Positions 10,532-27,403 of a stretch of DNA of 64,000 nucleotides are shown here, in pieces (positions within the stretch are counted from its first letter, which is position 1; each line of letters opens with the position of its first letter). The position numbers were made by a program, and so were the translations under genes. The DNA is from an uncultured Bacilli bacterium (lineage in GTDB: Bacteria > Bacillota_I > Bacilli_A > RFN20 > CAG-826): positions 494,350-558,349 of the forward strand of contig CALVUI010000001.1 in NCBI GenBank assembly GCA_944363565.1, in the 5' to 3' direction. The notes under the pieces are model-generated. The model was not told where the DNA came from, did no database searches, and saw only the letters and a program-made list of their open reading frames with translations.

Positions 10532-11653
10532 ATGCCAAAAAGTAAGCACATCCGCGCGGTCTTGGCCGCTTTGCGAAGGGCCGATGCCGATTTCTCTCTT
10601 ATCGATGAAGGTGACCGTATCGCTTTGGGTCTAAGTGGAGGCAAGGATAGCCTTTGCCTTCTATACGCTTTGAGCTTATATGGGAGGTTCGCCGGGAAGA
10701 AGTTCAAGGTCTATCCGGTCTTCATGGATCTCGGTTTTGGAAACGTCGACATCATTGCCCTCAAGGAATATTGTGGAAGTCTCGGCTATGAGCTGACGGT
10801 CAATGATTCGGCCTTCGTCTACGATGTCCTAAAAGCCCATCAGGAAAAGGGGAAGCATCTCCCCTGTTCGATCTGCTCAAGGATGAAGAAGGCCGCCATC
10901 AATGCCGAGGCCAAGAGGCTAAGATGCAACAAGGTGGCCTTTGCCCACCACCAGGACGACGCGGTCGAGACCCTCTTCATGAACATGGTCCATGGAGGGA
11001 GGGTCGCCACCTTCTCCCCGAAGATGGTCCTAAAAAGAAGCGGTCTGACTTTCATTCGTCCCCTCATCTATTGCCATGAGAAGCAAATGATCGATCTAGC
11101 CAAGGAAATGGAACTCCCGGTCTTGAAGTCGGCCTGCCCGGCCGACGGCCATACCGACCGCGAGGAAGTGAAGCATTTGTTGCAAGACATCTATAGGAAA
11201 TACCCGGAAGCCGAGAAGAACTTTGGGTATATGCTGAAGAACCACGAGGCCTTCGACCTCTATTTCGACGACATCGAATTGGAGGGGGAAGTCCCGACCG
11301 GCTATAGCGTCTCCCCCGTCGTCAGTGCCCGTCAAATGCGGGGCCTGAAGCTTTCCTCCAAGAAGGAAAGGGAGGGGGAACGCGACTTCGTCATCAGGAA
11401 AAACCACGAGGTGGTGGGGGAAGTGGCGTTGGTGAAGCTTTTGCCGCACCGTTACGGGCTCTACTACCTAGAAGGGGACGAGAAAACCCTCGCCAAGGGC
11501 TTATCGGTCCTCATCGAGCGCCTTTCCAAGGACGTCTTCCCCTTGACCCTAATCATGGAAAGGGGGCATCCGAAGGTGGCAAAAGCCCTAGGGTTTGCCT
11601 ACCTCCCCGTCCCCGGAAGCGGGAAGAAGGGCTACTTCAGGAAGATCGGCTGA
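10532..11653 (+). CDS. PP-loop ATPase of the TtcA/tRNA-thiolation family with extra C-terminal domain
   Basis: The ORF track starts at 10346, but that region is antisense to truB. I used ATG 10532 (MPKSKHIR); 10508 is an alternative. PP-loop LGLSGGKDS, LPCSICSRMKK motif, and a ~120-aa C-terminal extension of unknown function. Confidence 0.8.
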   Translation: MPKSKHIRAVLAALRRADADFSLIDEGDRIALGLSGGKDSLCLLYALSLYGRFAGKKFKVYPVFMDLGFGNVDIIALKEYCGSLGYELTVNDSAFVYDVLKAHQEKGKHLPCSICSRMKKAAINAEAKRLRCNKVAFAHHQDDAVETLFMNMVHGGRVATFSPKMVLKRSGLTFIRPLIYCHEKQMIDLAKEMELPVLKSACPADGHTDREEVKHLLQDIYRKYPEAEKNFGYMLKNHEAFDLYFDDIELEGEVPTGYSVSPVVSARQMRGLKLSSKKEREGERDFVIRKNHEVVGEVALVKLLPHRYGLYYLEGDEKTLAKGLSVLIERLSKDVFPLTLIMERGHPKVAKALGFAYLPVPGSGKKGYFRKIG

Positions 11654-12616
11654 AGGCCGGCTTAGGGCCTCGGCCGCCTCAAGGTAGAAGGCGGCGAGGT
11701 CTTTTTTGAAGGACGCGGGCTCGAGTATTTCCATTTCCTTCCCGAAGCGCAGCAAGTAGTTGAAGAGCTTGAGGTAGGGCCCTTCGAGGAGGTAGACCCC
11801 CTCCCCCAATGGGGTTACTTCCGGGCGGTTGTGCCAAAAGGCCCGTAGCATCCGCTTCCCTTCCTTGCTTAATCTGACTTTGACGCGCCTAGGCACGTCG
11901 GAAAGGTAGTCGGGCCCTTGGGCCAAGGCCCGGGCAAGCCTTTCCTCCTCTTCCTCGTCGAAGTCGCAGCGAACCAGACTCGGATAGACTTCCCCGAGGC
12001 GGTTGAGGCGGATGGAGGTCACGCGGTCAGCGAGGAGGCCCACCGCGTAGACAAAGTATTCCTCGCGGCTAGGAAGGACGGCATAGAGGCGGAAGAGGGC
12101 CTTGCCCTCCTTCGAGGAAATCTTGACCGCCGTCTTCGAGGAAAGCGCCTCTTCCAAGATCAAGAGGGTATCGCGGAACATCCAGGCTTCCCGTTCGGCC
12201 TGGGGCAAGGAGACGTAGGAATCGAAGAGACTACGGAGGTAGTCGCTCATCGAGCGGTCGCTTAGGTACTCCGACTCGATGCGGTCGATGATCCGTAGGC
12301 ACTCCTTGCTGGGGCGGAAAGAAAGGGAACAGTCGAACTTGGCCTTGAATAGACGCGGGGGCCGGCTTTCAAGCAGAGGCAGCAAGGCCGTGGTGAGCTT
12401 CCCGTACCTCGCCATCTTCTTGAGGGTGAAGGAGCGGACCTTTTCCTCGAGCCTCTTGGAAGCCACCTCGATGTGGGGGAAATAGTTGACGATGAGGGTG
12501 GAAAGGAAGCGGCTTTTGTTGACTTCGTTGCCGCGGTAGAAGCCGAAGCGCTCCATGTCGCTGGTGAGGACATAGTACGTAAGGTAGGTGAGGTTGACCT
12601 TGATCTTTTCTTCCAT
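11588..12616 (-). CDS. WYL + WCX domain protein (putative nucleic-acid-sensing regulator)
   Basis: Start trimmed to ATG 12614-12616 (MEEKIKVNL), preceded by GAAGGGGA. WYL-like core FVYAVGLLADRVTSIRLNRLGEV. C-terminal WCX-like LLRFGKEMEILEPASFKKDL. The 3' end overlaps the convergent upstream gene by 66 nt. Confidence 0.7.
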   Translation of the reverse strand: MEEKIKVNLTYLTYYVLTSDMERFGFYRGNEVNKSRFLSTLIVNYFPHIEVASKRLEEKVRSFTLKKMARYGKLTTALLPLLESRPPRLFKAKFDCSLSFRPSKECLRIIDRIESEYLSDRSMSDYLRSLFDSYVSLPQAEREAWMFRDTLLILEEALSSKTAVKISSKEGKALFRLYAVLPSREEYFVYAVGLLADRVTSIRLNRLGEVYPSLVRCDFDEEEEERLARALAQGPDYLSDVPRRVKVRLSKEGKRMLRAFWHNRPEVTPLGEGVYLLEGPYLKLFNYLLRFGKEMEILEPASFKKDLAAFYLEAAEALSRPSADLPEVALLPASGDGEVGKP

Positions 12617-12758
12617 GGTTTTCCCCTTCGTTCCTTGATTCGGAACCATTTTACAACTTGAATTAAGGATATTCCTAATGTTTCTTGTCATAAACATGAC
12701 CCTTTCATTTATGTTTTTTGCCCCTCTTTTATTTTCCCTAGCGGGATACAATACGCCT

Positions 12759-13305
12759 GCACCCCGGTGAAGTTGGTCTTACAGACCGCCGGGAGGTGCC
12801 CGACATGAGCGGCCCTCGGGGGATACCCCGCGGGAGAGCGAACGCCGCGGCCGATAGCCAAAGGCCGCGGGGAGAGGCGTGAGCCTCCCCGCCGGGCATT
12901 GTGCGGGCATGGTCGACACCTAGACTGCCCGAAGGCGCAGGGGAACAAGTTCCCGCAAGGGACGCCGTCTCCCAACAGTGTGAGAAACTGCGGAGCAAGG
13001 GACGGTATTCTCAAGACAATCCCTCGGAGTTGACGTCGGGGAAACCCGCCTATAATGCGCAATCGGGGCACGAGTAGGGGAAGCTCCAAAGTTTCCATGG
13101 AATGTCGAGATCCGACGTTCCCTGAAAGTCGGGCGAGGCAGATTCGCCCCCAGGCCATCGCAAGATGGTGTCTCATGGCCCTACTAGGGTTCGGGTCGCT
13201 CCCGGGCTCTCGGGGTAGGGTCGCCTGGTCAGTTAGCAAGGCCCAGACCACAACGCCCGTAAGGGGAAGCCCTGCAAGCCAAATGCCGCCCTCGGGCGGT
13301 TTTTG
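12759..13305 (+). ncRNA. Unclassified large (~550 nt) structured RNA candidate
   Basis: ORF-free GC-rich block. TACAAT -10 box at 12747-12752. Many stable hairpins, at least five of them GNRA-capped (coordinates in the findings). Ends in a GC stem plus T5 terminator at 13286-13304. The 5' end is only inferred. Confidence 0.55.
13286..13304 (+). terminator. Intrinsic terminator ending the structured RNA candidate
   Basis: CCGCC-CUCG-GGCGG stem-loop (13286-13299) followed by TTTTT (13300-13304). Confidence 0.65.
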
Positions 13306-15416: not shown

Positions 15417-15736
15417 TCCCTAGATTAGCGGGATTTTCCGGCTAAAACGGAAAGGTGTCCTCGAAGTCCGCTTTCCTTCCCCTGTCCGCGAGTAAACGGA
15501 AGCTTTTTCCCGAGCTTTACATAAGGTATTCCCAAAACAAGCTTAGAAAAGATTGAGTTGACCAGCCGTCAATCAAAAAGGGCTGGCCACCTATGTCGGA
15601 GGCGGGTCAGATGAAGACGGCAGGCTTGATTTTTTGACGAGGCATTCAGCGGAATCGCTGGGATTGCAGAATCGGTCCCTTTTAATGTAGATGGATCCAA
15701 ATCGGGCATCATGAAGAATCCGCCCAAGGGGTAATG

Positions 15737-17884
15737 ATGGATTAGCAGAACCTTTTAGCAGGGGTCGGAATCAATCAAACTCTCATCACCTATGACGCTG
15801 TTGTAGATTAGCAGAACCTTTTAGCAGGGGTCGGAATCGCGAACTACGTCCGGACATCGGGGCACTAGGTAGATTAGCAGAACCTTTTAGCAGGGGTCGG
15901 AATCGAAGGGTGCGGAGACCCCGCGGGGGAAGCCGTAGATTAGCAGAACCTTTTAGCAGGGGTCGGAATCGCCTTTAAGGTTCTCTTGAAATCCAAAGAT
16001 GTAGATTAGCAGAACCTTTTAGCAGGGGTCGGAATCTCAACGGGCCAAGCGGTCCGCCCGGCGCTAGTAGATTAGCAGAACCTTTTAGCAGGGGTCGGAA
16101 TCGTCAGGTCCTTTCTTCCGTCCTTCACGCTCGTAGATTAGCAGAACCTTTTAGCAGGGGTCGGAATCGGATCAAGAAGGAATATCCGGAAATCGCGAGT
16201 AGATTAGCAGAACCTTTTAGCAGGGGTCGGAATCTCCTTCCTTTGGCCGTTCGCCCATGCCTGGAGTAGATTAGCAGAACCTTTTAGCAGGGGTCGGAAT
16301 CTGTAGCTGATGTGTTCATTTGTTTGGTGTCGTAGATTAGCAGAACCTTTTAGCAGGGGTCGGAATCCCACCACGATGGCGACGAGATTAGTCATCGGTA
16401 GATTAGCAGAACCTTTTAGCAGGGGTCGGAATCCGGCATGCAAAAAAACGCCCAGGATTACAGTAGATTAGCAGAACCTTTTAGCAGGGGTCGGAATCGC
16501 GTTCGGTCGTCAACTGATAGGTCTCATAGTAGATTAGCAGAACCTTTTAGCAGGGGTCGGAATCGTTGCGCATTACCTGGTTTGTATCAAGCATGTAGAT
16601 TAGCAGAACCTTTTAGCAGGGGTCGGAATCGGCTGCGGGAGAATACGGCGAACACACGCAGTAGATTAGCAGAACCTTTTAGCAGGGGTCGGAATCGCGT
16701 GGGTCATCAGCGCGGAACCCTATCCGGTAGATTAGCAGAACCTTTTAGCAGGGGTCGGAATCTGGTCAGGTTGTCGGCGTTGGTCAGTTTGAGTAGATTA
16801 GCAGAACCTTTTAGCAGGGGTCGGAATCAGATAACGCTTGCCGTCTCTTTCTATTAGGTAGATTAGCAGAACCTTTTAGCAGGGGTCGGAATCATGCACA
16901 ATGAACACCGGGGACATCATTCCGGTAGATTAGCAGAACCTTTTAGCAGGGGTCGGAATCGTCCAAGCGTGTTAACATACGCGCAAAGGAGTAGATTAGC
17001 AGAACCTTTTAGCAGGGGTCGGAATCAAGCGCAAGTATGGCTCTATGCCCATCGCTGTAGATTAGCAGAACCTTTTAGCAGGGGTCGGAATCATGGTTCC
17101 GAACTGCACATCGTATCGCGCCGTAGATTAGCAGAACCTTTTAGCAGGGGTCGGAATCCCCTTTCCATCTCGCCATCGCAAATCAGGCGTAGATTAGCAG
17201 AACCTTTTAGCAGGGGTCGGAATCCGATGGAGGTGAAAATGCTTTGAATCATCTGTAGATTAGCAGAACCTTTTAGCAGGGGTCGGAATCCTCTCCCCAT
17301 ATGAAAACCTCATCGCTTCCAGTAGATTAGCAGAACCTTTTAGCAGGGGTCGGAATCAACGATCAGGTGCGGAAAATGCGAGGCATGGTAGATTAGCAGA
17401 ACCTTTTAGCAGGGGTCGGAATCTCCCCAGATCAACAGATGGTAATGCGGTCTGTAGATTAGCAGAACCTTTTAGCAGGGGTCGGAATCCGATCTCGGCG
17501 ATTACAATCAATTTGTTGCGTAGATTAGCAGAACCTTTTAGCAGGGGTCGGAATCATCAAAACGGATATACCCAAGGGTATACTGGTAGATTAGCAGAAC
17601 CTTTTAGCAGGGGTCGGAATCCGAACATGGAGCAAGTTTGGTTTCCCCATTGTAGATTAGCAGAACCTTTTAGCAGGGGTCGGAATCGCTGGAGCCGAGG
17701 GATTAGGGAGACCGCGGGTAGATTAGCAGAACCTTTTAGCAGGGGTCGGAATCGGCGAGGGTCTTTTCCTCTTGCCCGGGGTGTAGATTAGCAGAACCTT
17801 TTAGCAGGGGTCGGAATCCCACACGGCCCGCGCACTCCTGAGGCGATGGTAGATTAGCAGAACCTTTTAGCAGGGGTCGGAATC
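15737..17884 (-). CRISPR. Type II CRISPR array: 33 x 36-nt repeats, 32 spacers of 29-31 nt
   Basis: Plus-strand repeat GTAGATTAGCAGAACCTTTTAGCAGGGGTCGGAATC, with starts counted one by one from 15737 to 17849. The repeat at 15737 is degenerate (ATGG instead of GTAG), so that is the trailer end. tracrRNA complementarity says the crRNA is the minus strand (repeat GATTCCGACCCCTGCTAAAAGGTTCTGCTAATCTAC). Confidence 0.97.
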
Positions 17885-17894
17885 CTACGAGCAA

Positions 17895-17918
17895 ATTATA
17901 GGCCAAAAAGTGTGTCAA
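17895..17918 (-). promoter_or_regulatory. Candidate pre-crRNA promoter in the short leader
   Basis: On the minus strand, a perfect TATAAT (plus 17895-17900) lies 10 nt upstream of the first repeat. A TTGACA is present (17913-17918), but at a non-canonical 12-nt spacing. Confidence 0.4.
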
Positions 17919-17945
17919 ATAGAAGGTTTTATGGTATTTTGAGTC

Positions 17946-18968
17946 GTGGAAAATTCAGGAAAATTACTTTCAGTCATAACCGTTTTCAACAAAGAAGCCA
18001 AAAAATTTTACGAATTTTCGAGGCTTAATCTGATTTTTGGATACGCAGGATCTGGAAAATCAACCTTTTTATCGCTCCTCTCCTCCATTTTTACCGGCAA
18101 GGACAAACATCACTTGGTCAACGGTACACAGACGGTGGCTAAAGACTTCAACGTCATATATTTGGGAACCGACGATGGGATATCGAATCACCTGAAGCTT
18201 AGTTCCAAAAGCCTATTGAGAAGAATCATCGCGGAAAGCAAATATTCGGACTCGTTTGATCAATCGTGTGAACAAATGTTTAAGGGGATGAACCAAGCCC
18301 AAGAAGAAATTGAGGGCAGGATAAAGGAAATTCTTCCTGGAAGCACGGTCAAGATAACGGATTCTGGGCACCCCTTAGATTTTCTAATCGACAACATGAC
18401 CATAGAAATAGAAGGGGATTCGTCAAGCGAAGAAAAGAAAAAGCTTTTCGGTTTGATTCGCTCCCTTTCCTCCAACACGGCCATCAAGACCATCGTTTTG
18501 ATTGACGATTTCAACGATGACTTCGATGAGGAAACGACATTGAAATTCTTGGAGGAAATAGACAAAAGCAATGCATACTTCTTTTTGACGACAAAACGTT
18601 CCACTCCCCAAACATATCTCGAGGAAGGCGTAAAAATCTTCGCCATGAGGGAATTCGAAGCAATACCACTCCCCGATATCAAGACCTTGCTTCTGAATTC
18701 TTTGGTGGAAAACCAGGAATACAAAACGTTTGAGGAATACATAACCGGCAAGGGGTACGTCGAAAACTCCGGTTTGGCCGAAATGTTCCTGCATTACATA
18801 CAGGGTGACGAAAAAACCAACCTGCTAAGAATCCTGACCGCCAAATCGCCGGTTCTGGCACACGAAAACATACCGGGGAAAGTTACGATTGTGCCAATCA
18901 GCACAGAGGAAGAAAGATTATACAAATCCGTCTTCGAAAGCCTCGGCATACCACTAGATCAAAATTAG
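17946..18968 (+). CDS. ABC/AAA_15-like P-loop ATPase with ~120-aa C-terminal domain, in the csn2 position but on the opposite strand
   Basis: 340-aa ORF with GTG start. Walker A GYAGSGKST. Signature-like GDSSSEEKKKL. Walker B/D-loop IVLIDDFNDDFDEE. Shares the AT-rich codon usage of the cas genes. Its 3' end overlaps the cas2 3' end by 15 nt (convergent). Confidence 0.8.
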   Translation: MENSGKLLSVITVFNKEAKKFYEFSRLNLIFGYAGSGKSTFLSLLSSIFTGKDKHHLVNGTQTVAKDFNVIYLGTDDGISNHLKLSSKSLLRRIIAESKYSDSFDQSCEQMFKGMNQAQEEIEGRIKEILPGSTVKITDSGHPLDFLIDNMTIEIEGDSSSEEKKKLFGLIRSLSSNTAIKTIVLIDDFNDDFDEETTLKFLEEIDKSNAYFFLTTKRSTPQTYLEEGVKIFAMREFEAIPLPDIKTLLLNSLVENQEYKTFEEYITGKGYVENSGLAEMFLHYIQGDEKTNLLRILTAKSPVLAHENIPGKVTIVPISTEEERLYKSVFESLGIPLDQN

Positions 18969-19292
18969 CTGTTCTGCTGTTTCCTTTACTTCCTGCTCGG
19001 TTTTTTCTCCGGCGACAAGCACCATGCTTTCAAATTGGTTTTCCGTCACTTTCAAAATCCTAACGTTGCCGCTTTTCACCGAATAGGACTGAATCCTTCG
19101 CATGTGCTTGGCGGCATCGGTGTCGTTGTTGCAAAAACGGGTATAAACCGAGTATTGGAGCATCATGAAACCGGAATCCATGATGAACTTGCGGAATTTG
19201 GTGTATTCGCGCCTTTGGGCTGCCGTTTCCACCGGCATATCGAAGAGAACGAAGAGCCTCATGTTCCTGTAAGATGGTCCTTCAAAAGACAT
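18954..19292 (-). CDS. cas2: CRISPR-associated endoribonuclease Cas2 (type II)
   Basis: 112 aa. SYRNMRLFVLFDMPVETAAQRREYTKFRKFIMDSGFMMLQYSVY matches the type II Cas2 pattern. Overlaps the cas1 stop. Confidence 0.92.
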   Translation of the reverse strand: MSFEGPSYRNMRLFVLFDMPVETAAQRREYTKFRKFIMDSGFMMLQYSVYTRFCNNDTDAAKHMRRIQSYSVKSGNVRILKVTENQFESMVLVAGEKTEQEVKETAEQLILI

Positions 19293-20199
19293 CGGCTTTA
19301 TCGTTGGGGTAAAACTGGGGCGTTTTCACGACTTTAATATCCCCGGTTCGCATATATTCGACGTAATCGTTCACGAGCATGGATATGGCGTAAGAAATCT
19401 GAAATTTCTTTCCGTCTACCAAGACGTTGTAATTTAGGAGATTGACCATTCCCCTCCTCAATTCGCCGCTTAGGGGGATTTCTATTCCGGCCAGGTTATT
19501 GTAGACGTAGTAGTCTACGACCTGACGGAACGGCTCGACCAAATCGCATGAGAGATTGTTGGCGTTTTTCATGTTGGCGTGCCAGATGCCGAGGCAATCG
19601 TTAAGACCATTGAAGGCAACGCTGCGAATGACGGCACCCGTCAAAACCATGTAGCCGTAATTCAGCGCGGATGAAACCGGCGAGCTGCCGAAACGGATGA
19701 AATCGGGACCGAATAAGCATCGGAAATATTCCCTGGCCGCCTGACCTTCCATGTTTTTCTCGTCACCGAATTTGACTTCTCCCCGATAGGATTTCAAGCG
19801 ATCATAAACGGTAGGATCGTTCACCGTGTTTTCTATTACCGCCATTTGGTTGGCGATTTTTTGACGGATGATGATTTCCCAAACCTTGTTTTTCTTGCTG
19901 GGGAGCATCTTGATTTGACGATCCAACATTTCCGATTGCAAATAATGGCCGTTTATCGGTGCCACGACGGAGGCAGGAACGTAGTCGGAACCGCAGAAGA
20001 CGATGGAAGCTCCGTATTTTCTAAGTTCGCACAATAGACGTGCGGTGACAATGGAATTGGGATCCTCGACGAAAATCAAATCCAAGTCTTCCAGCGGAAA
20101 ACTCAGTGGCCGTTCGGAGTCATCCTTCTTGATTATGACGTTGTTGTCGCAAAGAGAAAGTTTGGCAGCGGACTGGACATAAAGCTGTCGAAATCCCAT
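19282..20199 (-). CDS. cas1: CRISPR-associated endonuclease Cas1 (type II)
   Basis: 305 aa with type II Cas1-like sequence (MGFRQLYVQSAAKLSL...). Lies directly after cas9 (1-nt gap). Confidence 0.92.
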   Translation of the reverse strand: MGFRQLYVQSAAKLSLCDNNVIIKKDDSERPLSFPLEDLDLIFVEDPNSIVTARLLCELRKYGASIVFCGSDYVPASVVAPINGHYLQSEMLDRQIKMLPSKKNKVWEIIIRQKIANQMAVIENTVNDPTVYDRLKSYRGEVKFGDEKNMEGQAAREYFRCLFGPDFIRFGSSPVSSALNYGYMVLTGAVIRSVAFNGLNDCLGIWHANMKNANNLSCDLVEPFRQVVDYYVYNNLAGIEIPLSGELRRGMVNLLNYNVLVDGKKFQISYAISMLVNDYVEYMRTGDIKVVKTPQFYPNDKADVF

Positions 20200-20200
20200 C

Positions 20201-23200
20201 TCAACTTATCTTTCCGAGAACGGAAATAGATTTGACTTTAATTTTCTTGATTTGAGAAATTGTCAACAAAAATCTATCGCCATTGAATTCCAAGTCGTAT
20301 CCATCGCCGAGGGGAGAATAGATTTCAAACAGTCCTTTGGACAACCCTCCGCTATAACAAATAAAATTAATCGGAGATTTCCCGCGAGGCAAGTAGTCAA
20401 GTTCCAAAAGTGAATACCTCGGTATTCTATAAAGCAATTTATAGCCATTTTCGAGCGAATCCGAGTTAATTTGGCAGTTTTGATCGTCTCTACCCCAAAA
20501 CAAAGTATACAAAATTTCAGATTTGTTCTTCGATTGTCGGGACTGTTTATTCTTCAAAATCTGCCAGTAATAGATAGGCACAAAATAATAGATATCACCT
20601 CCATCGCGTTTTTGATAAACGTCAACCCGAATAACCTCGTCATTTTCGGCATATTTCCCATCCGACAAATCGACTTTGTCCTTTGCGATTCCCTCAACAA
20701 TCCTAATATATTTTACGGGTGTCCCCATGTTTTTCCCGATAACGGGATATTCACCCCGATTACTCTCCTCTTTCTCTAGCCATTTTTTACAAGCTTCATA
20801 AATCGCTTTGCTGCCAGATTCGCGATGCTCGATCTTTTCAAGTTTATCAAAATTCAATTTTTTTACAGAAATTTTGTGAACCGTTTGACCGCAGTCGTTA
20901 ACACCCAATATCGTTTCTTTTGAAATCGGCCCACTAACGTTGGTTTTTGGAGAACGCGCGGGGATCAAAACGTGCACCGTCTTGTCAGTGGCTGGCTCGT
21001 CCTTGTAATTAGAAAGGGCATTCAATTTTGAAATTAGGGTTTGTTTATCCCTTTCATATACACGAATCAGGACCTCTTCCCTAAAGTTGCGATATGGGAA
21101 ACGAATTTCCCCGTTTTCATCGTATTCAGGTGAACACTCCTCGTGTTTCTGATAAGCCTTGGTTATACGTTGAATAAGGCGAGGATTGGAACAGGCTATG
21201 ACAGCAGCATCGAGAGCGTGGTGCAAATGGTTAGAGCGATCCTTCTCGTTGCTATCTTTTTGAATTTTCCTCCTTAGACAGGAGAGAATATAAATGCCGC
21301 ATTCGCGCCTTTCCGAATCGTTAGGGTTATTTGATTGCGCGGAAATGGCTTCTTGCAACTCATCGACACCGGTCGCAATGCCTTTCAAATCATTGAATTT
21401 TTCGTAGAAATAAGGATAAAACTCATCGCTAAGAAATAATTTAAGCATTTTATTGTGCAAAAATTTCTTTTCGTCGTCCTTTGATCCTTCCTTATTAATG
21501 GAATGGGGTTCAACTTTAAATGGTAATGGTTCCTTGGCGTTATCAAATTTATACTTGAATACGAGGCTTTTTTTGTTGTTCTCTTTTTCCATCCCTTGGT
21601 AAACATATTTGCTCATGGGCTTGGCTTTATAGTCATCGTATGCAAGATAGGAATGGGTATGGCCGCTCAGACCCCAAATGTCGCGGAGTTTTGCGGTTAT
21701 GCCACCGGAAACGCTACGGCATTGGACGCCTTTCGGCAAAACGTAATAAGTAATGAGCTGACGAGCGAGACGGGCGATGTAAGCATTATCAGTACTGTCC
21801 TTGTTGAGGAAGTCATCGGATATTTTGGTGGCTAGCAACTTCCGTCTTTTGCCAGGTTCGATGGCGTGCGAATTAAGATAGGCATATAGAGGAGCGCTCT
21901 TTTCTTCGGTATTCAGCCATTCCAGAGGTGTACGATTTCGTTTTTCCTGGTTGCATCTCGCTTCCACAAGCACTTTGTTTGAAATCGAATCGTCGAAAGA
22001 ACGAGAATATGGCAGAATATGGTCGATTTCATACCATCCGTCATCGAACAAATAGCTCGCTTTTATTGACTCATTGGTATAGGGGCTCACTCCCCGCTGT
22101 TCACAATACAGGCGATATTTCAGTAAACTGTTTTTCTGCCGTGAAATATTCCCATACGATTTAAACAAACCGGGGTATTTTTCAATCATTTCGTTACGAT
22201 ACCTATCGTTGTTCGAAAGATTGTCGAGCTGCTCCCCTTGAAGCTTCAATCTATCATTGGAGTTCTTTTTTATTTCTCTTCCGAGTTCGATTGCACAATC
22301 ATCGAAAAACCCATACCGGTCGATAATGGCATTTATTATCCTTCTCATCCTAACAAGAGTGTTGCGAACCACGGGATTAGTGAGAGTTTGCTTTGTTTCT
22401 TGGAGACATACATCAAGTTCGGGCATCCGCATTTGATCATTGTTCTGACGAAGACTGGTATGGCTATAGCCAATGTTGGCCATCGCTTTGTCATAGGTAA
22501 ATCCTTTTCTCATTTCTGGTATTAATTTCTTGCAAAGTCCCAGAGAAAGATCGATCGTTCCGCTAACATTTACGTCAAAATCCAAAACGTCGCTGATTTC
22601 TGTTTCGGAAAGATTAAGAGCCCTGAGTTTCGATTTGACTTCAATTTCAAGCGGCTGGTCTTTCTTATCCTTTTCTTCATCTTCCAAATGGAGACAATTA
22701 CGTAATGTGTCATCAGTTTTGTAAAGCCCGAACGCACTTATCAATGCATCAATGCAATCGTCCCCGGCATTTTTAAATCGTTCTTTTTTTCCGATAAGCG
22801 ACAATGCATCAGAACCTTTATAAAAATAGGATTTCCCTAAGGTTTTTCTTTTGTGAAATTTGTAAAAGTCGCCAAGTTTATCGCTCGGAATCTGCATCGT
22901 TTCAATGCCGTTCTCTTCACAAAAAGTCTTGAGGGACTCGTCAAATTTCTTTTTGCCTACGTGAAGGCCTTTAACATCCAAAATCTTATCGGGGTCGATA
23001 CCTACTTTTTTCAGCAATTGTTCATATGTAATCGTCTTCGCGAATAGGCATCCTTTTTCGGCTTTTTCGATTTGCTCGGGAGTCAAACGGGAATATTCCT
23101 TTTGCTCTGGGCTAGTTTTGTAGGAAAAGTTGTTTAAGGCCGAAAGTAAGACAAACCTCTTTGCGGTTATCGTATCCTTAAAAGCCCTAGGTTTTTCGTC

Positions 23201-24010
23201 GAAAATACATTTTCCGATTTTGTCGACAGGCTTGACGTAATAAGGCGAGCCTTCAGCCGGACCATAAGAACAATCGCGCTGTCTAGACCAAAGATCCATA
23301 AAGTCAGCGATGAACTCATCACTGACAAGACCGAATTCCTTTTGTTTATCCAAAAGAGCGCGAATTTCCGGCTCGTACCACTCTCTCCTAACTGTGAGAT
23401 AGAAATGATCAGGATCGTTATGAATTTTCGCACCGATTCCGTTTTTGGAGCGTTCGGCAAAATCTTTCAGCAAGCACACAGTAGGATAAAAAGGCTTTCC
23501 TTCCTGATAATGCTTATTTTTAAAGGCTTCCATAATGGGGAGCAACTTTTTATCGTCGTTATTCTTTGGTTTCTCGCTCTTTCGGTTGCTCTTAAAACCT
23601 CTGAACTTTAAATAATGGTAAAGAGCGATGCAAAGTTCTTCTTTGGTCAAAAGTTCTGTCAACCCCTTCACCTTCAATTGAAACGGGGTGGTAGGCGTAC
23701 CATCTTCGTTAAAAGAAACGGGTAATTTGGCAATGACATCATTGAAGAAATCTAATCCGAAGTATTTTGCAAAGAGATTCCTCCCTTCTTCCAAGCGGGT
23801 TACTCTGCGCCTTCTTTGACGGCGCATGAGACGTTTCTGCCGTCTAACTATATTTTCAGTCTTCCCTTTGTTATCTTCGATTTGGTCGAAAACGTATGAT
23901 CCCAAATCTATTATCTTTTTAGGATTGCCATCTTCGTCATCTTCGAACAAGCACCAGCCGATGCTCGCGATTCCAAGGTCCAAACCTAATGTCTTTTTGC
24001 CCATTGTCAT
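20201..24010 (-). CDS. cas9: Cas9 (1269 aa)
   Basis: RuvC-I LGLDLGIASIGW. Arg-rich bridge helix RRQKRLMRRQRRRR. HNH YEIDHILPYSRSFDDSISNKVLV...CNQEKRNRTP. RuvC-III NHLHHALDAAVIA. RBS AGGAGGA upstream. AT-rich codon usage compared with flanking DNA. Confidence 0.97.
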   Translation of the reverse strand: MTMGKKTLGLDLGIASIGWCLFEDDEDGNPKKIIDLGSYVFDQIEDNKGKTENIVRRQKRLMRRQRRRRVTRLEEGRNLFAKYFGLDFFNDVIAKLPVSFNEDGTPTTPFQLKVKGLTELLTKEELCIALYHYLKFRGFKSNRKSEKPKNNDDKKLLPIMEAFKNKHYQEGKPFYPTVCLLKDFAERSKNGIGAKIHNDPDHFYLTVRREWYEPEIRALLDKQKEFGLVSDEFIADFMDLWSRQRDCSYGPAEGSPYYVKPVDKIGKCIFDEKPRAFKDTITAKRFVLLSALNNFSYKTSPEQKEYSRLTPEQIEKAEKGCLFAKTITYEQLLKKVGIDPDKILDVKGLHVGKKKFDESLKTFCEENGIETMQIPSDKLGDFYKFHKRKTLGKSYFYKGSDALSLIGKKERFKNAGDDCIDALISAFGLYKTDDTLRNCLHLEDEEKDKKDQPLEIEVKSKLRALNLSETEISDVLDFDVNVSGTIDLSLGLCKKLIPEMRKGFTYDKAMANIGYSHTSLRQNNDQMRMPELDVCLQETKQTLTNPVVRNTLVRMRRIINAIIDRYGFFDDCAIELGREIKKNSNDRLKLQGEQLDNLSNNDRYRNEMIEKYPGLFKSYGNISRQKNSLLKYRLYCEQRGVSPYTNESIKASYLFDDGWYEIDHILPYSRSFDDSISNKVLVEARCNQEKRNRTPLEWLNTEEKSAPLYAYLNSHAIEPGKRRKLLATKISDDFLNKDSTDNAYIARLARQLITYYVLPKGVQCRSVSGGITAKLRDIWGLSGHTHSYLAYDDYKAKPMSKYVYQGMEKENNKKSLVFKYKFDNAKEPLPFKVEPHSINKEGSKDDEKKFLHNKMLKLFLSDEFYPYFYEKFNDLKGIATGVDELQEAISAQSNNPNDSERRECGIYILSCLRRKIQKDSNEKDRSNHLHHALDAAVIACSNPRLIQRITKAYQKHEECSPEYDENGEIRFPYRNFREEVLIRVYERDKQTLISKLNALSNYKDEPATDKTVHVLIPARSPKTNVSGPISKETILGVNDCGQTVHKISVKKLNFDKLEKIEHRESGSKAIYEACKKWLEKEESNRGEYPVIGKNMGTPVKYIRIVEGIAKDKVDLSDGKYAENDEVIRVDVYQKRDGGDIYYFVPIYYWQILKNKQSRQSKNKSEILYTLFWGRDDQNCQINSDSLENGYKLLYRIPRYSLLELDYLPRGKSPINFICYSGGLSKGLFEIYSPLGDGYDLEFNGDRFLLTISQIKKIKVKSISVLGKIS

Positions 24011-24038: not shown

Positions 24039-24132
24039 GCTCTCAGTGAGAGCGATTAGCAGAACCGAGCTTAGCAGGACTCGGGATTAACCCCGTGAGG
24101 GGTAAGAAAGTGGGGCCTAGCCCCCTTTTTTT
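24039..24132 (+). ncRNA. tracrRNA (divergent from cas9)
   Basis: The anti-repeat 24054-24088 (GATTAGCAGAACCGAGCTTAGCAGGACTCGGGATT) pairs with the minus-strand repeat as 13+8+8 bp helices with bulges. It is followed by hairpin CCCC-GTGA-GGGG (24091-24102) and terminator GGGGC..GCCCC plus T7 (24112-24132). The 5' end is inferred. Confidence 0.85.
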
Positions 24133-24312
24133 GTTGAGTCCCCATCCGGCAATGCTTCATATAAATAAGGATATAGGAGACAAGTTCCCTTTTAAACAGA
24201 CATCAAGGGATATAAGGCCACTCAACAATCCTTGTCCCAAAAAGCGTACACCTTACCCTTAACCGTCAGTTTTTTGTTTCTCGCCGGATCGGGCGGTGAT
24301 ATCTTCTCTGAT

Positions 24313-24633
24313 ATGGACGCCAAAACGAAAGAAAGAATCCGCCGCTTCAGCATCGACCGGGACTATGACCAGTTCCACTGCCCCGCCAACCTCGCCAAGT
24401 CGATTGCCATCGAAGCGGCCGAACTTTTGGAATGCTTCCAGTGGGACGATGCCCACTACGACGTGGAAGCCGTGAAGGAAGAACTAGCGGACGTCTTGGT
24501 CTATGCCCAGAACCTCATCGAGAAGCTCGGCCTTGATGAGGACGAGATAATCAACGCCAAGATGGACAAGAACGAAGCCAAGTATCCGGTTGCGAAAGCC
24601 AAGGGGCGTTCGACCAAGTACGACAAGCTATGA
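24313..24633 (+). CDS. MazG-like all-alpha nucleoside triphosphate pyrophosphohydrolase
   Basis: Start trimmed to ATG 24313 (MDAKTKERI). Motifs AIEAAELLECFQW and ELADVLVYAQNL (EExxE / ExxD type). The stop overlaps the next start (ATGA). Confidence 0.8.
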   Translation: MDAKTKERIRRFSIDRDYDQFHCPANLAKSIAIEAAELLECFQWDDAHYDVEAVKEELADVLVYAQNLIEKLGLDEDEIINAKMDKNEAKYPVAKAKGRSTKYDKL

Positions 24634-26498
24634 TCATCTATTCCGGTACCCTGGGGCAATTCGACAAGGAAGTGATGGAGGGTGGCATCGCCGACCTCAT
24701 CGAACAGTGCCTCATTGCCCATGGGCTCGGGGGCAAGGGCGAAGCGGAATACCGTAGCTGGAACAACTCCTTGCGCTGCATCCGCGATGCCCTCACATAC
24801 GAAAACAAAATAGACCGCCGCCTCAGGGTGGCCGTGGAATTCCAAATCCCCCAAACCTCCAAGAGGGTCGACTTCATCGTCTCGGGCCTCGGGAAGGACG
24901 TCAAGACGAAAAACGCCGTCATCGTCGAACTCAAGCAATGGGACCATGTCGAAGCTACCGACATGGAAAACGTCGTCGAAACCTTCGTCGGCGGGGCCAA
25001 CCGCCACATGGCCCATCCCTCGTACCAAGCCTATTCCTATTGCCAAACCATCAAGGCCTTCAACCTCGATGCCGAGGACATCGAGCTTTCGCCGTGCGCC
25101 TATCTCCACAACCTCCAACCGCGGGAAGCCGCGGGCATTTGGAATCCGATGTACCGCCAAATCCTCGACCTTTCCCCCTCCTTCATCGCCAACCAGGCCA
25201 TCGGCCTCCGCGATTTCATAAGGAGCAAGATATGGTTCCCCGACCAAGGGGAAACTATCAAGGCCATCGACTCCGGCCGCATCGGACCGACCAAGTCCTT
25301 GCAGGAGGCCATCGGGGAAATGATTGAAGGGAACTCGGCCTTTTGCTTGCTCGATGAACAGAAGGTCGCCTACGAGACGATCCTAGACTACGTCGAAAGA
25401 GCCAAAGGGAAGTCCACCATCATCGTCGAAGGAGGCCCGGGGACCGGGAAGTCGGTCATCGCCATCAACCTCTTGGCCCGCTTGACAAGGGAAGGGAAGA
25501 CCACGGCCTATGTTTCCAAAAACGCCGCCCCGCGGAGCGTCTACGCCAAGGAACTTTCCAAAGGCCACTACACCAAGGGTTACGTCAATACCCTCTTCAA
25601 GGGTTCGGGCTCCTTCGTCGATTGCTATGAAAATGCCTATTCCGTTCTCTTGGTCGACGAGGCCCACCGCCTCGGCCTCAAAAGCGGCCTCTTCCAAAAC
25701 AAAGGCGAGAACCAGATGCGGGAAATAATCCACGCTTCCCGGGTTTCCGTCTTCTTCATCGACGAAAGGCAACGCATCAGCAGTAAGGACTACGGCTCGA
25801 TTGCCGCCATCGAAGAGGCGGCGGCCAAGGAAAATAGCCATATAGTCAAGGGCGATGACCTCAAGCTCCTAAGCCAGTTCCGCTGCAACGGTTCCGATGC
25901 CTACCTTTCCTTCGTCGATTCCTTCCTAGACGGCAAGAATGCCATACCCGAGGACCTCGACTTCGATTTCCGCCTTTATACGGATCCGTGCCGGATGCGG
26001 AAGGACCTCCGTCTCCTCAACGAGGCAGACAACCGTTCGCGGATGCTTTCGGGCTACACGTTCGACTGGATTAGCAAGGCGGGAGGGCGCAACGCTCCTT
26101 ACGACATAGTGTTGTCCGGCGGCTTCAAGGCCCGCTGGAACCTCGGTTCCACCCAAACCTGGGCCATCGACCCCGATTCCTTCGAGGAAGTGGGGTGCAT
26201 CCATACGAGCCAAGGGCTGGAATTTTCTTATGTCGGAGTCATCATCGGCCTCGACATGCATATGGACGAAGGAAAGCTGGTCTATGACCCGAAGAAGAGG
26301 GCTAAGACCGACCAATCGCTCAGGGGAATCGCCAGCCACGGAGGGGAAGCGGCCGCGATGGGCATCATCCGCAACACCTACCGCACCCTTTTGACTAGGG
26401 GGCAAAAAGGATGCTTCGTCTATATCCAAGACCCGGCGCTCCGGGAAAAATTAAAGTCCGCGCTCATCCGAAGCGGCCATACCGATAGGATATTCTAA
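24630..26498 (+). CDS. DUF2075-like SF1 helicase with N-terminal PD-(D/E)xK-like nuclease domain
   Basis: 622 aa. N-terminal RVDFIVSG...AVIVELKQW (D...ExK). Walker A EGGPGTGKS. Walker B LLVDEAHRL. C-terminal HTSQGLEFSYVGVIIG helicase motif. Confidence 0.85.
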   Translation: MIIYSGTLGQFDKEVMEGGIADLIEQCLIAHGLGGKGEAEYRSWNNSLRCIRDALTYENKIDRRLRVAVEFQIPQTSKRVDFIVSGLGKDVKTKNAVIVELKQWDHVEATDMENVVETFVGGANRHMAHPSYQAYSYCQTIKAFNLDAEDIELSPCAYLHNLQPREAAGIWNPMYRQILDLSPSFIANQAIGLRDFIRSKIWFPDQGETIKAIDSGRIGPTKSLQEAIGEMIEGNSAFCLLDEQKVAYETILDYVERAKGKSTIIVEGGPGTGKSVIAINLLARLTREGKTTAYVSKNAAPRSVYAKELSKGHYTKGYVNTLFKGSGSFVDCYENAYSVLLVDEAHRLGLKSGLFQNKGENQMREIIHASRVSVFFIDERQRISSKDYGSIAAIEEAAAKENSHIVKGDDLKLLSQFRCNGSDAYLSFVDSFLDGKNAIPEDLDFDFRLYTDPCRMRKDLRLLNEADNRSRMLSGYTFDWISKAGGRNAPYDIVLSGGFKARWNLGSTQTWAIDPDSFEEVGCIHTSQGLEFSYVGVIIGLDMHMDEGKLVYDPKKRAKTDQSLRGIASHGGEAAAMGIIRNTYRTLLTRGQKGCFVYIQDPALREKLKSALIRSGHTDRIF

Positions 26499-26506
26499 GG
26501 AAGGAT

Positions 26507-27403
26507 GTGCCGTCCATACACCGACTCATCAAAAAAGAAGGCCGTTACTACGTCGATGACGAAATGGACAGCGTCGACATAAGCAAGGAGGATTGGATTG
26601 CCTTGATCGATGACCCGGAGGTGTTCAACGGAAAATCATTGGAAGTGCTTGGCTATTTCTATGAAGAAGAGGACCATCAGGCGTCGACCAAGCAAATAAC
26701 CGATAAATACGGCCTTGCCTCCAAGAACTTCAACGGCGTCATCATCGGCTTGGGCAAGAGAGCCCAGAAGGTTTTGGGACAACGGGCTACCGTGGTCCAG
26801 CAATCCAACCCTTCCGGCTTGTCCTACTGGTGTCTCTTCTTCCATGGCCATGAGGACAACGGCTTCGTTTGGAGGGTCCGCGAACCACTCGGGGAGGCCC
26901 TTCACGAAACCGGCATCCTGAGTGTCTTCCGGGAAGAAAACGAAAAGGAAGATCCCCTTTGTACGGAGATATTCAAAGAAGGGCAAATCACGAAGATTTA
27001 CGGCCGAAAATACGAAAGAAACCCGCAAATCCGCCGCGCCTTCGTCAAAAACTTCAAAAAGAAACACGGACGGGTCTACTGCGAAGCCTGTGGATTTGAT
27101 TTCGGGAAAACCTATGGGAAATTGGGAGAGGGTTTCATCGAAGTCCATCACAACAAACCGATTTCTTCCTTCAAGGACGAACACGAAGTCGATATCGAAA
27201 AAGACCTCAATTGCCTTTGTTCCAACTGCCACCGGATGATTCATGCCAACAAGAAACGCATCCTTTCGGTCGAAGAACTAAGGGCGAAATCGAAAAGGCC
27301 AAAAAGAACTAAACCAAGTTTCACATCAGTAGACAGTTATCTCTTCCTCATTATCAAAAACCCTCCCCATGCGGGGAGGGTCAAGGAAGGAAGGGGAACT
27401 TAA
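26507..27403 (+). CDS. HNH endonuclease (McrA-like) with N-terminal domain of unknown function
   Basis: 298 aa with GTG start after AAGGAAGGA (an alternative ATG is at 26564). HNH core CEACGFDF...IEVHHNKPIS...CSNCHRMIH. Confidence 0.8.
   Translation: MPSIHRLIKKEGRYYVDDEMDSVDISKEDWIALIDDPEVFNGKSLEVLGYFYEEEDHQASTKQITDKYGLASKNFNGVIIGLGKRAQKVLGQRATVVQQSNPSGLSYWCLFFHGHEDNGFVWRVREPLGEALHETGILSVFREENEKEDPLCTEIFKEGQITKIYGRKYERNPQIRRAFVKNFKKKHGRVYCEACGFDFGKTYGKLGEGFIEVHHNKPISSFKDEHEVDIEKDLNCLCSNCHRMIHANKKRILSVEELRAKSKRPKRTKPSFTSVDSYLFLIIKNPPHAGRVKEGRGT

Follow-up and report, generated by a model that had tools for sequence, protein, structure and literature searches.

An inverted Csn2-superfamily gene with an intact, conserved P-loop in a type II CRISPR-Cas locus of an uncultured Bacilli bacterium

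Csn2 is the least understood component of adaptation in type II-A CRISPR-Cas systems (short palindromic repeats that are clustered and regularly interspaced, with their associated proteins), and textbooks present it as a dead ATPase. Here we analyse a 64,000-nucleotide stretch of DNA from an uncultured Bacilli bacterium (contig CALVUI010000001.1, positions 494,350 to 558,349; hereafter the window, in whose own numbering positions are given), which contains a complete type II CRISPR-Cas locus in the order tracrRNA, cas9, cas1, cas2, gene X and array. Gene X, the subject of this work, lies in inverted orientation and encodes a member of the Csn2 superfamily in which a RecF-like nucleotide site has been kept and a family-specific C-terminal domain is added.

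Csn2 appears in the accessible literature solely as an inactivated ATPase that comes in a long and a short form (PMC10734277; PMC3695520), and one review words this as 'inactivated P-loop ATPase' (PMC10734277). Chylinski 2013 recorded fourth genes that were uncharacterised, and in a single locus a 'putative ATPase', and took their analysis no further (PMC3737331). Full-text searches of an open library turned up no account of a Walker A-positive or ATPase Csn2. The short canonical Csn2 proteins (PF09711; 3qhq, 3toc, 3v7f, 3s5u and 6qxf) occupy the same slot of the locus as gene X, and their head and leg fold resembles it. Unlike gene X, they are ~220 aa long, lack a P-loop, depend on Ca2+ and are encoded co-directionally with the cas operon (for example, in the related locus L028), and Pfam, NCBIfam and PDB searches detected no sequence similarity between the two. 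The large Stu0660-type proteins (PF16813; 3zth), found in S. thermophilus CRISPR1-like II-A systems, share with gene X a similar size (~330–350 aa), a KLS(S)KS motif, a profile match that covers head and leg, an extra C-terminal region beyond the short Csn2 and a position adjoining both cas2 and the array. Their P-loop (GxNIxxK) and Walker B (ILEN) are decayed, whereas both are intact in gene X, and the two C-terminal parts do not align. Stu0660-type genes are also co-directional with cas9-cas1-cas2 (PMC3737331), unlike gene X.

Walker-positive Csn2-like families detected by the PADLOC profiles PDLC01597 and PDLC02142, such as that of P0078 from a Lachnospirales metagenome-assembled genome (MAG), have Walker A, Walker B and a TFEEY/TLDDY motif as in gene X. 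The P0078 family differs in its length of 287 aa and its one-strand order cas9-cas1-cas2-csn2-array, and it too is a 'hypothetical protein' in public records. RecF matches gene X in the P-loop, the signature position, the DD-type Walker B with its acidic D-loop and the final β-strands; RecF differs in its much larger helical domain II, in having a true LSxGQ signature and in not being linked to cas genes, whereas gene X lacks the domain II insertion, has an altered sequence at the signature position and adds a C-terminal domain of its own. OLD, Gabija GajA and PARIS AriA combine an ABC head with a TOPRIM or nuclease effector, fused or paired, and gene X has neither.

Type II-C systems are defined by cas9, cas1 and cas2 only. 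The solved structures nearest to the window Cas9 are of the Nme- and Geo-type II-C (E 1e-84 to 1e-72), followed by SaCas9 and St1Cas9 at ~1e-37, and SpCas9 gave no match in the solved-structure search. The locus resembles the II-C systems of N. meningitidis and Geobacillus in its Cas9 and differs from them in its conserved fourth gene. The next Cas1 relatives outside the clade, at 36% identity in a word-indexed search, belong to a canonical II-A locus. With its Cas9 nearest to II-C enzymes and the next Cas1 relatives in II-A, we assign the locus to neither subtype. The clade matters for CRISPR typing in practice: typed by Pfam and NCBIfam its loci would read as II-C plus a hypothetical protein; typed by PADLOC-type profiles they would read as II-A.

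Gene X and its relation to Csn2 and RecF

The identities of Cas9, Cas1 and Cas2 are agreed on by Pfam, NCBIfam and PADLOC scans, and the four protein-coding genes of the locus are these:

cas9, 20201..24010, minus strand, 1269 aa; TIGR01865 at E 3e-143; HNH_4 and RuvC_III domains present
cas1, 19282..20199, minus strand, 305 aa; TIGR03639 (type II Cas1) at E 9e-73
cas2, 18954..19292, minus strand, 112 aa; TIGR01573 at E 1e-22
gene X, 17946..18968, plus strand, 340 aa, GTG start; inverted Csn2-superfamily protein with an intact P-loop

Gene X converges on cas2, the two 3′ ends overlapping by 15 nt with a TAG stop in each, and its GTG (17946) lies 61 nt from the nearest repeat, which ends at 17884; the order, coordinates, overlap and gap read in the initial annotation are all borne out by the sequence. 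Metagenomes and MAGs contain 46 clusters of full-length homologues, ~325–347 aa long and spanning 35–82% identity, and the ratio of nonsynonymous to synonymous substitution rates (dN/dS) is 0.10 for a pair of relatives with 89% identity. This comparison indicates that gene X is a real and functional gene, conserved under purifying selection. Its recognizable parts, all on the plus strand, with conservation assessed in 45 homologues, are as follows:

Walker A, GYAGSGKS, residues 32–39, 18039..18062; G32, S36 and K38 invariant, G37 conserved in at least 90%
HLKLSSKSL motif, residues 82–90, 18189..18215; K84, K88, S89 and L90 invariant
signature-like DSSSEEKKK, residues 156–164, 18411..18437; occupies the RecF signature position in the hhalign alignment
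Walker B and acidic D-loop-like segment IVLIDDFNDDFDEE, residues 183–196, 18492..18533; IVLIDDF...DEE, with D187, D188, F189, D194, E195 and E196 invariant
C-terminal helical domain, ~residues 245–340, 18678..18965; TFEEYxxGxGY and NxLRILTxxxP motifs, invariant or nearly so

E263, Y271, R295 and a few other residues are also invariant in the homologue alignment. GYAGSGKS and IVLIDD, both invariant, conform to the Walker A pattern GxxxxGK[ST] and the Walker B pattern hhhhD[DE] of ABC, SMC and RecF ATPases. At the signature position, where gene X reads DSSSxEK, alignment with RecF shows that the Ser and Lys are retained and the canonical Gly and Gln replaced. The Walker A, signature-like and Walker B motifs noted initially are thus all present.

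The PADLOC Csn2 profile PDLC01597 matches residues 16–273 of gene X at E 6.3e-16, two other PADLOC Csn2 models and generic ABC-type defence ATPase models match more weakly, and Pfam and NCBIfam scans returned only generic, sub-threshold P-loop matches. A search of 1.8 billion representatives with a profile of the X family found 134 proteins, the weakest matches being RecF. Among 96 representatives tested, 90 match PDLC01597, 50 match PDLC02142, smaller sets match other Csn2 models and 3 are members of Pfam Cas_St_Csn2. Profile–profile alignment with hhalign related the X family to Cas_St_Csn2 (97.9%, E 6e-13, with X residues 10–264 on residues 2–273 of the Stu0660 type), to the Csn2-like family that is Walker-positive and in the canonical position (99.2%, E 2e-19) and to RecF (98.9%, E 2.5e-17, with P-loop, signature and Walker B/D-loop aligned). 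In these alignments the X P-loop falls on the decayed GxNIxxK of Stu0660-type Csn2, IVLIDDF lies opposite the decayed IVILENI(DHL), and the counterpart of HLKLSSKSL is the IKLSKxSMM of Cas_St_Csn2 proteins. The RecF counterparts are GxNGSGKT for the P-loop, LSRGQxK for DSSSxEK and LIDDxxAELD for LIDDFnnDfDEE. By similarity, gene X appears to be about equally near to RecF and to Csn2, and in profile similarity its clade falls between RecF and those Csn2 families whose site has decayed.

The initial annotation had set gene X apart from textbook Csn2 by its strand and its intact Walker motifs. Both differences hold, although an intact P-loop is not unique to gene X: GxxxxGK[ST] occurs in the majority of the ~130 distant Csn2-like representatives recovered by the family profile, is present in 116 of 146 Csn2-like proteins linked by BLAST and has decayed in some branches. 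Gene X was initially placed in the csn2 slot; the position is correct, and the PDLC01597 match, the hhalign alignments and the Stu0660 fold make the occupant itself a Csn2 homologue. The family is unnamed in public annotation, a second homologue search (broad alignment A2) returned no named proteins, and an existing PADLOC Csn2 profile already detects it.

An AlphaFold2 model of gene X (predicted local distance difference test, pLDDT, 80; predicted template-modelling score, pTM, 0.73) was compared with the PDB. Its best match there is the large Csn2 Stu0660 (3zth; E 5.5e-8, template-modelling (TM) scores 0.53/0.52), followed in the ranking by GajA, ABCG2, retron ATPases and OLD, and short Csn2 structures match at TMt 0.47–0.52. 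A Foldseek search of a viral library with the model returned generic ABC ATPases only. The model contains a long helical hairpin formed by helices 79–97 and 102–129, with HLKLSSKSL at its start; this hairpin is a candidate Csn2-type 'leg', which may contact DNA through the lysines of KLSSKS. The C-terminal ~100 residues, modelled alone, reached pLDDT 80. A winged helix had been guessed for this domain from its order of helices and strands, and it is unsupported by any PDB fold match.

Inverted orientation and linkage to cas genes

We examined the X-family loci of the window, L001/L002, L003, L006, L007 and L017–L024; loci related to that of the window derive from gut-type Bacillota MAGs, an uncultured Firmicutes genome and Ca. 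Alloenteromonas. Wherever neighbours are visible, gene X converges on cas2-cas1-cas9; its 3′ end overlaps cas2 in all loci, and the array lies upstream of it wherever the contig extends that far, with 38–80 nt between gene X and the first repeat in all loci. Consistent with the initial proposal that gene X belongs to the cas module, its linkage to cas9-cas1-cas2 is constant across these loci. The layout extends to P0053 and P0060, which are more remote at 29% and 23% identity, respectively, and which together with P0069 are always inverted.

To remove the sampling bias of a search that starts from gene X, loci were also sampled by their Cas1. All three loci picked at 57, 48 and 43% Cas1 identity have an inverted, Walker-positive gene adjoining the array, and the locus at 36% (L028) is a classical SpCas9-type II-A system with a short, co-directional Csn2; the canonical co-directional order was also seen in L015. 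No copies of gene X were found by tblastn in plasmid and phage collections. A pattern scan of genome contigs recovered gene X in two species representatives, a count limited by the pattern method. The inverted layout is therefore specific to the X clade and fixed within it. Csn2 homology together with these many inverted examples reduces the novelty of gene X without removing it: the clade is a previously unnamed one within the known Csn2 kind, made distinct by its inversion with a shared mini-leader and by its intact ATPase site.

The cas module is lower in GC than the window (~56%), which is compatible with horizontal acquisition. The initial annotation contrasted an AT-rich codon usage common to gene X and the cas genes with GC3-rich flanks. 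The contrast in third-codon-position GC content (GC3) holds for gene X (0.53) and cas9 (0.44) and is weaker than implied for cas1 and cas2 (0.60–0.61), set against 0.61–0.83 in the flanking genes, or 0.64–0.83 when the 298-aa open reading frame (ORF) adjoining a helicase gene (0.61) is left aside.

One further Csn2-like protein stands in another setting. P0073 (359 aa; L008, 1–1183) matches PDLC01597 over its full length at 2e-48, starts 103 nt from a contig end, and the genes after it are not cas2 but non-cas genes, cation efflux among them. Either this is a different architecture or the cas genes lie past the assembly break.

Proposed role of gene X and alternative explanations

We consider it probable that gene X is a divergent Csn2 that has kept an ancestral RecF/SMC-like ABC-ATPase nucleotide site, binds ATP and acts in adaptation. 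Its product would work with Cas1-Cas2, and probably with Cas9 for selection of the protospacer-adjacent motif (PAM), in spacer acquisition. As in solved Csn2 proteins, its α/β head and helical-hairpin leg may oligomerize around, or clamp, the free double-stranded DNA ends of prespacers. In contrast to them, binding of ATP at the Walker A and B motifs, probably followed by hydrolysis, would gate the engagement or release of DNA, in a manner likened to the ATP-dependent dimerization of RecF. The proposal thus predicts that gene X hydrolyses ATP, forms an oligomeric ring, binds DNA ends and contacts Cas1-Cas2, and that the leader promoters are used. Among the three options offered in the initial annotation, an active-ATPase adaptation factor fits best, with the ATPase activity predicted from the motifs. 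On this evidence the X clade represents a known CRISPR component in a distinct variant form and not a new system. A bolder version, which we hold only tentatively, is that the clade consists of ATP-hydrolysing Csn2 proteins preserving the ancestral RecF-like state of the inactivated Csn2 families, and so represents a distinct type II variant with energy-dependent capture of prespacers or hand-over of them to Cas1-Cas2; such a variant would combine a Cas9 of ~1250–1300 aa with a csn2-ATPase in inverted orientation and a mini-leader that is bidirectional.

Several observations weigh against the proposed reading, both as to Csn2 kinship and as to ATPase function. Gene X itself is not matched by Pfam Cas_Csn2 (PF09711), Pfam Cas_St_Csn2 (PF16813) or TIGR01866, and PDB sequence searches with gene X and with its family profile gave nothing significant and no Csn2. 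In fold, the model matches Stu0660 moderately (TM ~0.53, root-mean-square deviation 8 Å), the generic ABC ATPases GajA, OLD and ABCG2 score almost as well, and no PDB fold is matched by the C-terminal domain alone (best E 2.7). The ABC signature is altered, SSSxEK in place of LSGGQ, and the Walker B Asp is followed by a second Asp and not by the usual catalytic Glu. Such a DD-type Walker B is like that of RecF, yet hydrolysis could be slow or absent.

Only one rival carries substantial weight, and we regard it as unlikely: that gene X forms a passive, Csn2-type ring on DNA ends, its P-loop a relic that binds nucleotide structurally or not at all and hydrolyses none, much as canonical Csn2 slides without energy (PMC3695520). 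The degenerate signature, the DD in place of DE in Walker B and the persistence in cas loci of other superfamily branches with decayed P-loops would all be expected of a relic. The invariance of G32, S36, K38, D187, D188 and DEE across homologues of 35–82% identity, at a dN/dS of 0.10, is hard to explain on these terms, and RecF, with the same DD Walker B, is an established working ATPase. The similarity to RecF, as strong as that to Csn2, and the position of gene X beside the leader–repeat junction, where integration takes place, could instead suggest a RecF-like action after integration, in which gene X recognizes the single-stranded gaps that flank a spacer just inserted at the leader-proximal repeat and brings in the gap-repair machinery. 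We judge this improbable, since the loci show no sign of RecO or RecR partners, gene X lacks the large helical domain II insertion of RecF (long gaps in the alignment), and solved Csn2 acts with Cas1-Cas2 before integration (title of PDB 6qxf).

The remaining two explanations place gene X outside adaptation. As an independent defence or abortive-infection ATPase (AriA-, GajA-, OLD- or AbiL-like) hitch-hiking in the cas locus, it would account for the weak PADLOC matches to AriA (4e-11), mad8, AbiLi, GajA and PtuA, for the GajA, OLD and retron ATPases among the fold matches and for the defence-rich neighbourhood. The AriA- and GajA-type matches, however, cover only the generic ABC head and are outscored by the Csn2 models; gene X has no TOPRIM or nuclease domain, and its loci no conserved partner gene. 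Wherever neighbours are visible, in the Cas1-first sampling as well, it is accompanied by cas9-cas1-cas2, its 3′ end overlaps cas2 in every locus, and it is absent from the plasmid and phage collections. The initial suggestion of an unrelated single-gene defence ATPase is rejected on the constant cas linkage and the lack of plasmid and phage copies, and we consider the hitch-hiking explanation very improbable. Least probable of all, in our estimate, is that gene X chiefly regulates the expression of pre-crRNA or cas genes. Such a role would suit the promoter region of 38–80 nt common to gene X and the array in all loci, and a conserved C-terminal helical domain that has no known function. That domain, though, matches no helix-turn-helix or other DNA-binding fold, the conserved core is an ABC head with a Csn2-like leg, and the window contains a separate candidate regulator of the WYL type nearby.

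A divergent Csn2 with an intact, conserved nucleotide site turns the origin of Csn2 and the role of its head domain into testable questions. If gene X hydrolyses ATP, nature would have supplied a system for turning the function of Csn2 on or off through nucleotide. The interest of the clade lies mainly in this prospect of an energy-dependent Csn2 and in the evolutionary link between RecF-like ATPases and Csn2.

Array, tracrRNA, leader and neighbouring genes

The non-coding parts of the locus are the following:

CRISPR array, 15737..17884, minus strand (crRNA sense, GATTCCGACCCCTGCTAAAAGGTTCTGCTAATCTAC); 33 repeats of 36 nt, separated by 32 spacers of 29–31 nt; leader end at 17884
spacer region between array and gene X, 17885..17945, no strand assigned; 61 nt, CRISPR leader with predicted back-to-back promoters
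TATAAT, 17896–17901, minus strand; ~8 nt before the repeat
CTAC (GTAG on the minus strand), abutting the leader-proximal repeat; read from the sequence
TGGTATTTT, plus strand, ~8 nt before the GTG of gene X; −10-like box facing gene X
predicted tracrRNA, approximately 24054..24132, plus strand, divergent from cas9; read from the sequence and folded
tracrRNA anti-repeat, 24054–24090, plus strand
tracrRNA GC hairpin CCCCGTGAGGGG, 24091–24102, plus strand
tracrRNA terminator hairpin GGGGCCTAGCCCC, 24112–24124, plus strand; followed by a T-run

Of the 33 repeats, 32 are identical and the distal one (15737–15772) differs at 2 positions; by chance, 0 such repeats would be expected. In 8 related loci, copies of the anti-repeat are found at the corresponding site beyond cas9 and in the corresponding sense. 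Because the tracrRNA is transcribed away from cas9, the crRNA is placed on the minus strand, in the direction of the cas genes, with the leader on the side of gene X. The opposite assignment, crRNA on the plus strand, was discarded: it would run the tracrRNA on the minus strand into the cas9 start codon without a terminator. The sister arrays L001 and L021, from different samples, have 22 X-distal spacers in common, in order, and differ at the X-proximal end by 20 and 33 spacers. The tracrRNA, the degenerate distal repeat and this spacer polarity agree in placing the leader beside gene X, and the spacer differences show that X-type loci acquire spacers in nature. The window array gave no match to a phage collection by megablast, and for that reason no protospacers or PAM were obtained.

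Gene X was initially reasoned to share its promoter region with the CRISPR leader, and as a prediction this stands. Opposite-strand, −10-like boxes facing gene X lie in the leader gap of all loci. On the array side, an extended −10 (TGnTAtAAT-like), 8–10 nt before the repeat, and an ATAG–repeat junction are conserved in more than 10 loci. Gene X and the pre-crRNA would accordingly be transcribed divergently from a leader of 38–80 nt with two −10 boxes, although a strict scan of 17700–19400 found no full sigma-70 consensus site in the window leader. The same scan found no terminator between the convergent gene X and cas2. On the crRNA strand, ATAG abuts the leader-proximal repeat in L001, L003, L006, L007, L017, L018, L020 and L023, with GTAG in the window (17885–17900), and this junction is a candidate leader-anchoring sequence for the integrase. 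With its −10 boxes and ATAG junction, the compact divergent leader offers a convenient minimal model of leader recognition by a type II integrase.

Arrays of related loci reach 81 repeats. In the X-type locus L006 (7838–7940), on the complete 'uncultured Firmicutes' chromosome OX437086.1, the array has 2 repeats and 1 spacer, against 15–81 repeats elsewhere. Compared with 15600–17946 of the window, a Logan assembly of the same strain (L005, 6900–7365) has the 33-repeat array collapsed to one repeat, which implies that short-read assemblies under-report arrays adjoining X genes. The repeat, in minus-strand sense, ends in TGCTAATCT, which resembles an extended −10; the 3′ end of the Neisseria II-C repeat is similarly −10-like and carries internal crRNA promoters. 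ORFs of 50–140 aa on both strands at 16204–17918, with recurring RLAEPFSRGRN and GFRPLLKGSANL, are artefacts of translating the CRISPR repeats.

On the far side of cas9 and the tracrRNA, the region 24232–27403 (plus strand) is likely a defence island. It contains a MazG-like gene (24232–24633), a Schlafen-group-3-like helicase (24630–26498, plus strand) that PADLOC relates weakly to PDC-S41, Nhi and AbiO, and the gene of a 298-aa protein whose match to type IV restriction is weak; a similar SLFN-g3 helicase flanks the related locus L001 on its array side. Beyond the array lies a 387-aa WYL-domain protein (11588–12751, minus strand; PADLOC 'WYL, Cas-associated signalling' at E 7e-12, with a WCX Pfam match), and regulators of the WYL type are often found close to CRISPR-Cas and defence loci. 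Next to it, ~2.5 kb past the trailer end of the array, the window carries a ROOL RNA in full length (12747–13284, plus strand; Rfam RF03087, 113.6 bits against a gathering threshold of 99.1, E 1e-22), a large structured non-coding RNA of unknown function, and the ORFs that overlap it are probably spurious.

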